Positions 1,664 to 61,896 of a stretch of 64,000 nt of DNA are shown piece by piece. The translations under genes were made by a program, and so were the position numbers. Below the pieces are notes generated by a model that worked only from the letters and a program-made list of their open reading frames with translations, was not told where the DNA came from and did not search any database. Position 1 is the stretch's first letter. The number at the start of each line of letters is the position of its first letter. The stretch is from a virus: the IMG/VR virus record IMGVR_UViG_3300033418_000001, positions 44,444 through 108,443 of that record; one strand, 5' to 3'.

Positions 1664-1841
1664 AGGTCTTCCCACCGGGTTGGGGTTCGTAACGGACCCC
1701 ATTATCGCCCGCAGCGGGGAACCTGTGATCGAACGAGTTCATCAGGATGGTGAGGGGGATGCCGTGAGGGAACGCCGCGCAGTTGAAGGTACCCCTTTGC
1801 AGATGTCTGCAACCCATGCACATGGGCACGCCACCGATCAT
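1623..1841 (-). CDS. Small Cys/His protein (CxxCxH...CxAFPxGIP...H...GDxG), possible partner or immunity protein of the downstream metallopeptidase
   Basis: ATG at 1841 overlaps the protease stop; the motif resembles small genes recalled next to MuF/zincin genes in phages. Confidence 0.6.
   Translation of the reverse strand: MIGGVPMCMGCRHLQRGTFNCAAFPHGIPLTILMNSFDHRFPAAGDNGVRYEPQPGGKTYGLAVRPQVQPES
1798..1811. repeat. 14-bp quasi-palindrome copy 1/17
   Basis: TGCAGATGTCTGCA, read as CRHL in a small CDS. Confidence 0.95.
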
Positions 1842-2428
1842 GACGTGGCCTCTTCCCACAGCACCTTCTCCACGTAGCTGAAGCGATGGTTGTGGCCGAG
1901 GGAAGATTCGGTCACCGTGCCGCGCTTGATCACATGGCTGTGGCCATCGGCAGCGGATGAGGTGCGCCCGCCGAGGAACTGGCCGTTGTCGTCGTAGGAG
2001 ACGAAGAACTCATGGTCATGGCCATCGTCGGCCTTGGCCACAAGCCCGCTGATCACCGGGGGTAGTTCCACCGTCATGGTGGCCTTCTCCCGGGTGACGA
2101 GGGCTTCCATCGAGTAGCCGTTGATTTCGCCCTTCTTGATCATCGACCACACGCCCTTATCGGGGATGTGCATCCCCACCACCCATGACCCCTTGATGAA
2201 GTCGGGGTCGCCCTTGCGGGCGATGAAGGACTCGATGATGTAGGCGTTGACGAGCTTGTTGTTGTGCTGAAGGTCGATGCGATCCGTCTTGCGCTCGCGC
2301 ATGAACTTGTAGGCCATCTGCTCGATGGCCGTCTCGGTCATGATGTCGCCGTCAGCATCGGGGATGTTGGGCGCGTAGACCTCGGCCCACACCATCTGTT
2401 GGTCTTCCGACGCAAGCTTGAGGTCCAT
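1838..2428 (-). CDS. XkdF-like prohead (capsid maturation) protease
   Basis: VWAEVYAPNIPDADGD...AYKFM...IDLQH...ESFIA...GSWVVG...IKKGEINGYSMEA; located in the head cluster. Confidence 0.85.
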   Translation of the reverse strand: MDLKLASEDQQMVWAEVYAPNIPDADGDIMTETAIEQMAYKFMRERKTDRIDLQHNNKLVNAYIIESFIARKGDPDFIKGSWVVGMHIPDKGVWSMIKKGEINGYSMEALVTREKATMTVELPPVISGLVAKADDGHDHEFFVSYDDNGQFLGGRTSSAADGHSHVIKRGTVTESSLGHNHRFSYVEKVLWEEATS

Positions 2429-2430
2429 GG

Positions 2431-3135
2431 TCAGTCCCACCAGAGTCGCAGCACGGAACCCTTCCACTGGCGCCCCGAGGGGACGAGAGCCTTCGGCCCG
2501 CCGCCATGGTACTTGTCCACGTCCTCTTGCGTGAGGAAGCGTTCCCCCGGCTTCACCATGTCGATTTCATCGGCGCGCGTGCTGCGCTTGGCGAGCTTGG
2601 CGATTTCCTTCAGCGCCCGCTCCGGCCCATGCACGTAGACCACGGGCGACATCTCACGCCCCGGGGACACCTTGATTTCGTCGTTCCACTTGGCGAGGAA
2701 GTTGGCGACGCGGTTGGTGTTGAAGGCGTTGTACCCGCCCGGGGTCGCCGTGCCCATGGTGTTGCGGAAGGCATCGACCGACATCTCCTTCTCGGCCACG
2801 AAGCGCAGCTTGTGGGTACGGTACCCGTCGATGATGTCCCGCCGGTCCTTGAACTCGCGGTACATGCCACGCGGGTCAGTGGCGGGCTTGGGTTGCGCGG
2901 CGGCAAGCTGCCCTTCCGTGGACATGCCATTGCGCGGACCCATCTTCGGCGGGGCCGTGTTGAAGCCGAGGCCATCGTGGGTGTCCCCGGTAGATCGAGC
3001 GTGTTCCGCTGCCGGGTTGGCAGCGACCGGGCCTTCGAAGTCGGCAGCAGCGGCAGCGCCGCCGTTGCTCGTCGTGAAGCGACCATCCGGCCCGTGGTTG
3101 TGGTTGTACTTGCGGAGGCGGAAGAAGTAGTTCAT
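2431..3135 (-). CDS. Tag-bearing hypothetical protein, candidate capsid cargo
   Basis: N-terminus MNYFFRLRKYNHNHGPDGRFTT; lies between MuF and the protease. Confidence 0.7.
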   Translation of the reverse strand: MNYFFRLRKYNHNHGPDGRFTTSNGGAAAAADFEGPVAANPAAEHARSTGDTHDGLGFNTAPPKMGPRNGMSTEGQLAAAQPKPATDPRGMYREFKDRRDIIDGYRTHKLRFVAEKEMSVDAFRNTMGTATPGGYNAFNTNRVANFLAKWNDEIKVSPGREMSPVVYVHGPERALKEIAKLAKRSTRADEIDMVKPGERFLTQEDVDKYHGGGPKALVPSGRQWKGSVLRLWWD

Positions 3136-3147
3136 GGTCGCGCCCCC

Positions 3148-3981
3148 TTACCAACCCATGGCGCGAAGCTTCTTCGCGTTCTTCTCCTGCGCGGGCGACA
3201 TCTGCACCTTCTGCCACTTGTCGCCCATCTTGGCGTGCGTGATGTCGTGGGTGTAGACCGAACCCATCTCGGTGTAGGTGCCGTAGACGGTGGCGAGGCG
3301 GATGTTGCCCTTCTTGTTGTCCTCCATGCGGGCTTCCCACCCGTTGCGGAGCTTGATGCGCGTGCCGCGCTTGATGTCGTTGGCGTAGAGCGCCGCCGGG
3401 GCTTGGGTGCCCTGCGCGGTCTGCGTGGACGCGGAGTGGCCCTGCGTGCCCGACGTGAGGCCCGTGCTGCCCGAGGCGTTGTCGCCGTCCGTGGCCTTGT
3501 TCTCGCCCGAGCGCGGGCCACCGGCATCACCGATGGCGCCCACGTCGCCGCCCGAGGGCGTGCCCTTGTTCTCGCCCGAACGGGTGCCCCCGGCGTCCTG
3601 CCCCGTGATGGCGGCTGCGGAGGTCAGGGCGTCGTTCTGTTGGGAGACGGCGGGCGTGCCCGCGTTCTCGCCGCTGCGCGGGCCGGAGACCGAGCCACCG
3701 GGCTTCGGGCCACCTGCCGGGATGGCCTTGTTCTCACCGCTGCGCGTACCGCCTGCGTCCTGCCCGCTGACCGACGTGGCCGGGGCCGGAGCCATCTTCA
3801 CCGGGTCGGTGCGCGGGTCGCCGCCACGATTGGCCGAGGTGCCTTGGCTCTCGCCGGAGCGCGGGCCTTGGACCGGGGGCTGCGCGTTCTTGCCCTCGGT
3901 GCCTGCGGGCATACCGGAAGCGAAGCGACCATCCTTGCCATGGTTGGGGTTGTACTTCAGGACTTGCGCGAACTTGGTCAT
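3148..3981 (-). CDS. Tag-bearing protein with G(P/T)RSGE(N/S) repeats and a small C-terminal beta domain
   Basis: N-terminus MTKFAQVLKYNPNHGKDGRFAS; five RSGE repeats in a low-complexity G/A/T/P region. Confidence 0.75.
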   Translation of the reverse strand: MTKFAQVLKYNPNHGKDGRFASGMPAGTEGKNAQPPVQGPRSGESQGTSANRGGDPRTDPVKMAPAPATSVSGQDAGGTRSGENKAIPAGGPKPGGSVSGPRSGENAGTPAVSQQNDALTSAAAITGQDAGGTRSGENKGTPSGGDVGAIGDAGGPRSGENKATDGDNASGSTGLTSGTQGHSASTQTAQGTQAPAALYANDIKRGTRIKLRNGWEARMEDNKKGNIRLATVYGTYTEMGSVYTHDITHAKMGDKWQKVQMSPAQEKNAKKLRAMGW

Positions 3982-4010
3982 CTTCGTCTCCTCAACTTGG
4001 GAACCGCGAG

Positions 4011-60585: not shown

Positions 60586-60591
60586 GGCTAC

Positions 60592-60619
60592 ATCTTACCA
60601 CGCCCCCAGAGAATGTCAA
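60592..60619 (-). promoter_or_regulatory. Sigma70-type promoter, leaderless HD-hydrolase transcript
   Basis: TTGACA-N16-TAAGAT with ATG 6 nt downstream and no RBS. Confidence 0.7.
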
Positions 60620-60834
60620 CCGGGCTTCAGCTTGGTCTTCAGCCGGTTGGGGAAGCGCCCCTTGACGGGCACCCCATCCATAACGTGCTGCGGAAGCTCG
60701 CGCACCTTCATGCCGTGAGTGGAGGCGATGAACTCGTCCACCACGTTCGCCGGGGGACAACCGTCCATGGCGTTCTGCCCCGCACACGCCCGCATGAAGC
60801 GGTTCTGCGCCCTGCTCACTACTGGACCGGCCAT
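60616..60834 (-). CDS. Small phage protein (SxAQxRFM motif)
   Basis: VSRAQNRFMRAC...VVDEF...LP; GGAGG RBS. Confidence 0.5.
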   Translation of the reverse strand: MAGPVVSRAQNRFMRACAGQNAMDGCPPANVVDEFIASTHGMKVRELPQHVMDGVPVKGRFPNRLKTKLKPG

Positions 60835-60922
60835 GATCCCCCCTCCGTGATGTAGATGTACAGCCCCACCACTACGATGCCGAGGGTGAGGCCAACGATG
60901 AAGTACCCGAGCGCGGAACGTC

Positions 60923-61174
60923 TCATGATGTAGGCGGTGGGTTAGTAGGAGGCACCTGCACGTCTTTCCAGATGCTCATCATGGAGCCGAGAAGGTAGCA
61001 CACCGGGGCGTTCACCGCACCGATGATGGCGGCAATCTCCACTCCTTCCCGAAGCGAGGTCTCGGCGAAGTGGAAGAACCACCACAGCGTCCACGTGAAG
61101 ACCGACAACACCCACACGAAGATGACGCGCTTGACGAAGTTGGGCTTGTCCAACAGGTGCCAGTTCACGGACAT
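60923..61174 (-). CDS. Two-TM membrane protein (holin/antiholin-like)
   Basis: Two hydrophobic helices; directly after the endolysin. Confidence 0.55.
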   Translation of the reverse strand: MSVNWHLLDKPNFVKRVIFVWVLSVFTWTLWWFFHFAETSLREGVEIAAIIGAVNAPVCYLLGSMMSIWKDVQVPPTNPPPTS

Positions 61175-61896
61175 GCGATGGTCCTTCCCCACGTGGTGTA
61201 CTTCGGTTGCAACGTCTTCAGGATGCGCGGCGGGTAGCCCCGGTTCTCGTTGAAGAACTCCTGCTTCCGCCCCGCATTGTACTTTTCGACGGACCCCCAG
61301 TAACGACGGGGATCGTCGCCGTTTCTTGCCGCCACTGCCTTGTCCTTGGTCACCCATCCTGCGCCTCCGTTGTAACCGGACAGAGCGAAGGCCATGCGGT
61401 CGCACTCGGTGATGCCCTCGGTGCGGTCCCACAGGTGCTTGTCGTAGCGCACCAGAGCCGACAGTGCCCACGTCGGGTTGTAGGGTTGGTGAGGGCCGAG
61501 GTCAGGGTACACGTCGTCAATCCAGTCCGCCGTGGCGGGCATGAACTGCGCGAGACCTTGGGCACCCACGGGAGACCGCGCCTGCTCGTTCCACGCGCTC
61601 TCTTGGTGGACCTGTGCCCCGAAGACCGGAACGGGGGCGCCAAGCCCCCACACCGACTGCGCGGCACCCGTGATGGTCCTGCGGTACTTGCGCGCCGCAG
61701 GGGGCGCCAGATCAGGCGCCTCTTCCTGTGCAGATGTCTGCACGGGAGCTTTGGGTTCTGCTTTGGGAGGCGTGGGCGCCTCGGGGGTGCATGACACCAA
61801 GGTGGCAATTGCCACCACGAAGATGGCAATTGCCACTAGCCCCCGCAGGAGGCACGCTCTACAGACCAAGCGTAATTCCGAGAACGGTTCCCACAT
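61165..61896 (-). CDS. Endolysin, lytic transglycosylase (SLT) with N-terminal anchor
   Basis: QVHQESAW, GAQGLAQFMPATA, ALSGYNGG, ENRGY. Confidence 0.9.
   Translation of the reverse strand: MWEPFSELRLVCRACLLRGLVAIAIFVVAIATLVSCTPEAPTPPKAEPKAPVQTSAQEEAPDLAPPAARKYRRTITGAAQSVWGLGAPVPVFGAQVHQESAWNEQARSPVGAQGLAQFMPATADWIDDVYPDLGPHQPYNPTWALSALVRYDKHLWDRTEGITECDRMAFALSGYNGGAGWVTKDKAVAARNGDDPRRYWGSVEKYNAGRKQEFFNENRGYPPRILKTLQPKYTTWGRTIACP
61729..61742. repeat. 14-bp quasi-palindrome copy 17
   Basis: In the endolysin linker (QTSA). Confidence 0.95.

Follow-up and report, generated by a model that had tools for sequence, protein, structure and literature searches.

An evenly spaced, genome-wide array of near-palindromes in a clade of one-strand phages and a ParB-fold protein as its candidate reader

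Introduction

The stoperators of Cluster A mycobacteriophages are tens of copies of one 13–14-bp site that lie across the phage genome, also within operons, and share a single phage protein as their binder. They are asymmetric and oriented with transcription, and binding of the immunity repressor to them blocks elongation. The IncP plasmid RK2 carries 12 dispersed O_B sites. In the Cluster O mycobacteriophage Corndog, 34 invariant inverted repeats (TGTTCGG-NNN-CCGAACA) occur genome-wide; these 17-bp dyads lie between open reading frames (ORFs) or inside them near their ends, and their reader and function are unknown (PMC4351075). The specificity of Noc, the reader of the scattered NBS palindrome of Bacillus subtilis, evolves through a few residues (PMC7383237, PMC4331003, PMC8429893). 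Here we describe an array of a 14-bp near-palindrome in a 64,000-nt stretch of viral DNA (positions 44,444 to 108,443 of IMG/VR record IMGVR_UViG_3300033418_000001, hereafter the window), its counterparts in related phages, and a candidate protein reader.

Results

The sites are invariant and evenly spaced

The source record is 108,443 bp long and was rated complete by CheckV. The window, its final 64 kb, contained 17 exact copies of the 14-mer, 13 on the plus strand and four on the minus strand (Table 1). The coordinates and strands given in a preliminary description of this DNA were all exact. No match to the 14-mer occurred in 100 shuffles of the window. Copies with one or two mismatches were absent, and the two-mismatch search returned only the reverse reading of the same sites. 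A count over the full genome, proposed in that description, gave 28 exact copies (18 on the plus strand and 10 on the minus strand). The flanks noted there, T or G on the left and A or C on the right (K...M), held for all 28 copies. They extended the site to a 16-mer near-palindrome, KTGCAGAYRTCTGCAM, with the inner core AGACATCT. This amounted to one exact 16-base near-palindrome per ~3.7 kb, within and between genes. Isolated half-sites outside the full sites numbered 44, versus about 43 estimated from base composition, and were thus not enriched.

The gaps, previously put at about 1.5–6.8 kb, measured 1522–6767 bp in the window and 1429–6767 bp over the whole genome. Their regularity, which had also been proposed for testing, was far greater than chance. 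The coefficient of variation (CV) was 0.43 genome-wide versus 0.95 for sites placed at random, an evenness that not one of 20,000 simulations reached.

A self-trained gene caller run on the whole genome called 145 genes, all on the minus strand. Although all genes share one strand, the orientation of the sites was split 18:10; the site itself is a near-palindrome. On the sense strand CA exceeded TG in the centre, by 18:10 here and, for intergenic sites only, by 8:0 in phage DLP3 and 15:1 in the relative G009. Avoidance of NTG start codons in leaders may be the sole cause of this bias, and it was not taken as polarity.

A scan of IMG/VR for the exact 14-mer gave nothing beyond single chance matches, and a megablast search of 8 kb against cultured phages gave no match. 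DNA of the phage was present in wetland metagenome runs from two studies. Contigs from four of these runs, at low depth, were compared over positions 1–20000 of the window, which hold five sites, and neither variants nor joints were seen at these sites; a comparison of contigs does not reveal nicks or ends.

Related phages carry arrays of their own

A search with the portal protein found the Stenotrophomonas phages DLP3, DLP5 and Summit, RcZahn, and the Rhizobium phages RHph_Y1_11 and TM16, together with dozens of 72–102 kb contigs from water, sediment and soil. All 15 related genomes that were compared in full (72–102 kb) carried a 14-bp array of their own, mostly of the form TGCA-N6-TGCA. 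The array-bearing cultured relatives included Stenotrophomonas DLP3, Rhodobacter RcZahn and Rhizobium RHph_Y1_11. Copies of TGCA-N6-TGCA numbered 35 in DLP3, 38 in DLP5, 28 in RcZahn and 15 in RHph_Y1_11; about 2 were expected from the TGCA frequency, and the reversed-pattern control gave 0–1. The pattern was present in 15–54 copies in 13 of 16 IMG/VR relatives. Two relatives nearly devoid of it bore the TGAT-type 14-mers TGATACTAAGATCA and TGATCTTAAGATCA. Absence of the motif from the rest of the genome and from relatives, which the preliminary description had set down as speaking against an array, was not what was found: there were 28 copies in the genome, and the relatives had their own arrays.

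The inner six bases were specific to the lineage (e.g. AATCAATT, AATTAATT, AACTAGTT, AACCACTT and AACAAATT). The centre was nearly always a pyrimidine-purine step (CA/TG, TA or CG). In a relative with 72–76% identity in DNA, the TA-centred TGCAGATATCTGCA was found at the positions orthologous to the window sites at 4386 and 8260. This indicated that positions are kept while the centre changes. The earlier statement that the centre never varies was therefore correct for the studied genome, in which CA/TG is fixed, and did not extend to this close relative. The clade comparison demonstrated both conservation and co-evolution of the arrays.

Spacing was also significantly even in DLP3, RcZahn, G002, G010 and others. 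In all 16 genomes essentially all genes (93–146 in each) lay on one strand, as in the published description of RcZahn, and the sites were enriched in non-coding DNA, with 24–93% of them intergenic versus 6–16% non-coding DNA. Twenty-five protein families were common to the 16 genomes, and two of the uncharacterised ones, a 286-aa and a 309-aa protein in the studied genome, had the fold of DNA-binding proteins. The papers describing DLP3 and RcZahn do not mention the repeats, the motif strings were absent from phage papers in the searchable literature, and that literature does not describe the phage DNA-binding protein proposed here to dock at the repeats.

Selection acts on the DNA

In the whole genome 11 of the 28 sites were intergenic and 17 lay within genes, and non-coding DNA made up only 6%. 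Seven of the 11 intergenic sites began 2–3 nt past the stop codon of the upstream gene, and an eighth began 6 nt past it. In the window 6 of the 17 sites were intergenic, three of them 2–3 nt past the upstream stop codon. The new gene calls thus lowered the number of window copies in coding sequences from the 13 reported before to 11. The reading frame xTG-CAG-AYR-TCT-GCA (V/L-Q-T/M-S-A), the sole frame without cysteine, was used by 14 of the 17 in-gene sites genome-wide and by 8 of 11 in the window. More than one frame was used, as the preliminary description had stated, though most of the sites shared this one. Two sites upstream of the window, at genome positions 42428 and 43857, were found in head-module polyproteins directly ahead of ILKFNP(N/F)H... 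peptide tags, and are therefore placed at inter-module linkers.

The most position-conserved site of the clade lay within a gene for an O-like initiator, in 11 of the 16 genomes. In 9 of these 11 it was about 25–35 codons or less from the stop codon (the last tenth or so of the gene). The peptide at this site tracked the local motif, being V-Q-M-S-A here and V-Q-L-I-A, V-Q-L-T-A or V-Q-L-V-A elsewhere. In relatives whose sites have unequal arms, the orientation that pairs better in RNA was on the sense strand in 37 cases and on the antisense strand in 45, with 235 equal. Selection is on the DNA rather than on RNA or protein. As regards protein, this had been the view of the preliminary description; it is the best-supported one and is strengthened by the comparison across the clade.

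Palindromic hexamers were scarce in the whole genome (888 observed versus 2068 expected). Forty-three of the 64 had no copy, versus 5 of 64 mirror-repeat controls, and those without a copy included CTGCAG, GATATC, GACGTC, ATCGAT and AGATCT. Zero-copy palindromic hexamers numbered 42 in RcZahn, 37 in G007 and 25 in DLP3. This looks like a broad avoidance of restriction sites. A TA centre in the site would create GATATC, a CG centre GACGTC, and a C or G flank CTGCAG. CA/TG is therefore the only pyrimidine-purine centre that makes no palindromic hexamer. Hexamer avoidance would account for the asymmetric centre; it would leave the absence of A/T flanks unexplained.

For three of the 28 sites, the –35 box of a strong sigma-70-like promoter followed 2–6 nt downstream; the other 25 had no such neighbour. 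Two near-identical early promoter regions were seen on the minus strand at 51260–51340 and 60000–60082 of the window, each made up of a site, AAGTRG, TTGACA, N16–17 and TAnTAT. The conserved leader of both ends in CAAAGGAGTGC ahead of ATG.

A 286-aa protein is the best candidate reader

Homologues of a 286-aa protein encoded in the window (Table 1) were present in all 15 relatives; the orthologue in DLP3 is DLP3_062, and that in RcZahn is encoded at 58369–59586. Alignment of its model with VIA-align gave Z 9.8 for Spo0J-parS (root-mean-square deviation 3.4 Å over 112 residues) and Z 8.9 for both Noc-NBS (6Y93) and ParB-parS; unrelated chains gave about Z 4. In a Foldseek-independent search of 48,161 representative chains, eight with Z of at least 6 were among the matches listed, and four of these were ParB, Spo0J or KorB DNA-binding domains (for KorB, 1R71 at Z 6.9 and 8QA8 at Z 6.0). 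The model thus points to a ParB-type helix-turn-helix DNA-binding domain, seen at the level of the fold only.

The protein was also modelled as a homodimer. The ipSAE was 0.72 versus 0.00 for the best control, the runs shared at least 73% of contacts, and the predicted local distance difference test score (pLDDT) was 71 or more. Of 30 solved homodimers 20 came up to this mark, and of 23 monomers one did; these counts are only rough, since the alignment used was our own. A palindrome of 14–16 bp read by a dimer would have its counterpart here in the 16-bp near-palindrome and the modelled homodimer. In 9 of 16 genomes a motif site was located 55–88 nt upstream of the gene for this protein.

A six-frame search of the whole genome for the N-terminal ParB/Srx CTPase domain (PF02195), which closes the sliding clamp of such proteins, gave no match at E ≤ 0.1; the domain was found in control genomes. 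Only about 30 residues, mostly disordered in the model, precede the DNA-binding domain of the 286-aa protein. PF13614, the only ParA-type ATPase family searched, likewise gave no match at E ≤ 0.1, and was found in 14 of 14 control genomes.

Neighbouring genes

The sites, the two candidate readers and two other proteins considered as binders are listed in Table 1. A 1189-aa head-module protein is encoded on the minus strand at 2–1663 of the window and extends upstream of it (genome 46106..42537). It has a type IB topoisomerase core at residues 969–1162 (PF01028, E 3e-26), a match to the bacterial TopIB N-domain, and a weak, sub-threshold match to the anthrax lethal factor N/C domain family (E 3e-4). 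Its gene lies between a protease gene and further large head-module genes, which suggested a virion-carried enzyme. Between the large terminase and PolA, a minus-strand module (11286–17534) was common to all 16 genomes. It encodes a PPDK/PEP-utilising dikinase-like protein of 662 aa, dual-specificity-phosphatase-like proteins of 171 and 264 aa, and unknown proteins of 337 and 225 aa, and may modify DNA or a host target. A 776-aa protein (17771–20101, minus strand) has a Zeta-toxin-like kinase domain (PF06414, E 4e-14) and homologues in 5 of 15 relatives. The two contig ends (genome 1–100 and 108344–108443) have ~55 nt in common that are nearly identical (GCCCACCGTGGACAGCGTGGCG...). The genome is probably circularly permuted, the assembly having broken within a tail-fibre-like gene that contains repeats.

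Table 1. Sites of the array and genes for proteins considered as readers (window coordinates)
Feature	Coordinates	Strand	Description
Site	1798..1811		intergenic; 26 nt past XkdF-like protease stop, 134 nt ahead of 1189-aa head polyprotein gene
Site	4386..4399		within 145-aa gene, aa 17–21, L-Q-T-S-A; orthologous site in 72–73% identical relative is TGCAGATATCTGCA
Site	8260..8273		intergenic; 2 nt past PolA stop, 69 nt ahead of portal start; TA-centred orthologue in relative L136
Site	11664..11677		within universal 225-aa gene, aa 96–100, Q-M-S-A frame
Zn-ribbon protein, 139 aa	15072..15491	-	no family match; homologues in only 4/15 relatives
Site	15529..15542		intergenic; 3 nt past PPDK-like stop, 37 nt ahead of Zn-ribbon GTG start (15491)
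Site	20160..20173		intergenic; 2 nt past stop codon, 58 nt ahead of 776-aa Zeta-kinase-like gene
Site	22785..22798		within 114-aa gene, aa 93–97
Site	24307..24320		intergenic; 16 nt past stop codon
Site	27476..27489		within 230-aa gene upstream of large terminase, aa 10–14
Site	34243..34256		3' end of 142-aa gene following ParB-fold gene; 14 nt ahead of next start codon
Best candidate reader, 286 aa	34657..35517	-	residues ~33–164 model as ParB/Spo0J/Noc/KorB-type DNA-binding domain
Site	37331..37344		within 67-aa gene, A-D-I-C frame
MerR-type helix-turn-helix protein, 144 aa	39812..40246	-	homologues in only 6/15 relatives
Site	43826..43839		3' end of 130-aa gene; 11 nt ahead of primase start
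Site	49091..49104		3' end of 59-aa gene; 4 nt ahead of next ATG
Site	51326..51339		intergenic; 6 nt upstream of minus-strand consensus promoter TTGACA-N16-TACTAT
Rival candidate reader, 309-aa lambda-O/DnaD-like initiator	55181..56110	-	N-terminal winged helix; followed by 188-aa gene and DnaB helicase gene
Site	55265..55278		3' part of O-like initiator gene, aa 278–282, V-Q-M-S-A, predicted disordered linker
Site	60068..60081		3' end of HD-domain gene; 6 nt upstream of minus-strand promoter TTGACA-N17-TAGTAT
Site	61729..61742		start of SLT transglycosylase gene; G flank + TG form the called GTG start

Discussion

The sites most likely serve as docking sites for some phage-encoded DNA-binding protein. 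A genome-wide array for a dimeric phage protein had already been suggested in the preliminary description. This remains the best-supported reading and was strengthened by the clade comparison, while the binders named there fared poorly. The Zn-ribbon protein has homologues in 4 and the MerR-type protein in 6 of the 15 relatives, all of which carry arrays, and the ParB-like module is at odds with the lack of a detectable ParB N-terminal domain genome-wide. That the array is a lattice for a symmetric dimer, with the 286-aa ParB-fold protein as its candidate reader, we rate at about even chances.

In this mechanism the 28 copies of KTGCAGAYRTCTGCAM would form a docking lattice on double-stranded DNA. 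Each half of the phage-encoded dimer would contact one TGCA-containing half-site. The TGCA blocks lie 10 bp apart and hence on one face of the helix, with a flexible pyrimidine-purine step between them. The reader would have a DNA-binding domain of the ParB/KorB/Noc type without the CTPase clamp domain, and would presumably be unable to slide off its loading site. With no sliding or spreading from a few sites, a site every 1.4–6.8 kb would then keep the whole chromosome in reach. The lattice may serve genome-wide organisation or coating, and sites abutting promoters may double as operators for the same protein. Binding of the 286-aa protein to the sites is inferred, as are these roles.

Several observations weigh against this assignment. 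The 286-aa protein had no Pfam, PHROG-function or PDB sequence match; a Pfam search on 11 members of its family gave nothing above noise, and profiles of five universal proteins without an assigned role found no useful match among PDB sequences. The model of the 286-aa protein is of middling quality (mean pLDDT 67.7; 75–89 for core residues 33–164). The other four listed chains with Z of at least 6 were Raf1, which scored as high as the ParB family, and Z values of 8–10 for helical domains can reflect a common arrangement. The studied genome has no site upstream of the gene for this protein, and the putative recognition helix of the protein (YRKAMY...) hardly varies between lineages with differing motifs. 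A partial Mantel test compared whole-protein and motif distances for the 25 universal families; the distance of the 286-aa protein did not track that of the motif (partial r 0.08). Spacing was not even in G003, G006 and G012 (CV 0.8–1.0). With no match to the ParB CTPase domain or to the ParA-type family searched, the system is not a partition system, and what the binding does is a matter of conjecture.

The lambda-O/DnaD-like initiator is a less likely reader, though not a negligible one. The sites would then be dispersed helicase-loading points or secondary origins, and the one within the initiator gene would correspond to the lambda origin, itself located in gene O. The initiator has homologues in all 15 relatives, with the 188-aa gene and then DnaB downstream. 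Its N-terminal domain models as a winged helix (pLDDT ~90), the model resembles MarR/ArsR regulators and plasmid Rep initiators, and its Atlas neighbours are 'replication protein O', DnaD and HTH_36 at 0.96. The initiator gene holds the clade's most conserved site, also in both TGAT-motif genomes. The putative recognition helix of the initiator differs greatly from lineage to lineage, as a reader that co-evolves with its sites should; the whole protein is fast-evolving, however, which makes the variable helix weak evidence, and its distance tracks the motif distance only weakly (partial r 0.15). The Mantel test singled out neither this protein nor the 286-aa protein; its top scorers, the PPDK-like enzyme (0.39) and a phosphatase (0.33), were treated as noise. 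Moreover, an origin usually comprises a cluster of iterons with an AT-rich unwinding element. The sites here are isolated 14-mers, and the one in the O-like gene has no further copies or AT-rich tract beside it, unlike a lambda-type origin.

It is unlikely that the sites are ordinary operators of a global transcription regulator, such as the MerR-type protein, with a role for the promoter-adjacent copies alone and the in-gene copies as tolerated by-products. The three sites next to –35 boxes, the intergenic enrichment in all 16 genomes and a promoter at 10 of 27 sites in G008 are as expected from operators. On the other hand, a promoter-like match within 20 nt was found at only 3 of 28 sites here and at 0–20% in most relatives, and intergenic regions without a site showed a similar rate (0–21%). 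The in-gene sites are invariant, stay at orthologous positions in diverged genomes and determine the peptide; even spacing would be unexpected of operators, and the MerR-type protein is absent from 9 of 15 relatives. It is still less probable that the sites are substrates of a cutting, nicking, topoisomerase or recombination enzyme, as in T5-like programmed nicks, swivel points for a virion type IB topoisomerase or module-exchange junctions. The topoisomerase core (E 3e-26) in the 1189-aa protein, an HNH gene, DNA homology with the relative L131 that resumes exactly at the window site at 4386, and the even spacing, which suits swivel points, would agree with it. The second orthologous site, at 8260, nevertheless lies within uninterrupted homology, and both orientations occur on a one-strand genome. 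The topoisomerase polyprotein, which was also rejected as a reader on this account, is missing from the array-bearing DLP3, RcZahn and RHph_Y1_11 and has homologues in only 4 of 15 relatives. The wetland contigs, within their low depth and five sites, showed no joints and so gave no evidence of the recombination between sites once considered. Least probable of all, and very much so, is action in RNA, in which a short hairpin would mark points of mRNA processing or stabilisation past stop codons. The intergenic sites do cluster just past stop codons, and with all genes on one strand every site is transcribed. Yet the stem is merely 5 bp, the copies are invariant without covariation, the better-pairing orientation is not preferred on the sense strand (37 versus 45), and 17 of the 28 sites are in coding sequence, where cleavage would destroy the message.

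If the lattice with the 286-aa reader is correct, it would represent a novel means of coating or folding a whole viral chromosome, in which fixed docking points replace CTP-driven sliding, and an example of chromosome-wide viral organisation without a sliding clamp. It might serve to compact the DNA, to shield it from the nucleases or defence systems of the host, or to coordinate replication with one-way transcription. A widespread phage group would then maintain, at an evident cost to its proteins, an address code that spans the genome. The reader would evolve new specificities between close relatives, providing a natural series for the co-evolution of a DNA-binding protein with dozens of sites. 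Phages of Stenotrophomonas, Rhodobacter and Rhizobium in this group are in culture, which would make the pairing directly testable. We tentatively propose, as a possibility rather than a probability, that in this clade of ~100-kb one-strand siphoviruses of Proteobacteria a clamp-less ParB-fold protein is paired with evenly spaced in-gene nucleation sites.

Among described systems, KorB/O_B of the IncP plasmid RK2 likewise has a near-invariant palindrome scattered over a whole mobile genome, with copies both adjacent to promoters and distant from them (PMC11790492). The DNA-binding domain of KorB, of the ParB superfamily, is the 1R71 match to the 286-aa model at Z 6.9. KorB differs in being a CTP-dependent sliding clamp with the partition partner IncC/ParA, whereas the phage has no detectable ParB N-terminal domain or ParA. 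As the searches for the CTPase domain (PF02195) and for ParA (PF13614) gave no match, the lattice is placed outside the ParABS/KorB family. Compared with the O_B count given in the Introduction, the phage has twice as many sites, which are evenly spaced and mostly in genes. Noc/NBS of Bacillus subtilis is likewise a scattered 14–16-bp palindrome with a ParB-type reader (PMC7383237, PMC4331003, PMC8429893). Noc differs in its CTPase domain, membrane-targeting helix and role in the cell-division checkpoint; no such features were seen in the phage. The sites are also unlike stoperators: they are near-palindromes, and their 18:10 orientation on a one-strand genome does not follow transcription. 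The Cluster O repeats belong to an unrelated lineage with hosts of another phylum, and have another sequence and a 3-bp spacer, with no reported even spacing or candidate reader. In kind, however, the dispersed dyads of that cluster (more than 30 invariant repeats between and within ORFs) are matched by the 28 invariant copies described here, 11 intergenic and 17 in ORFs.

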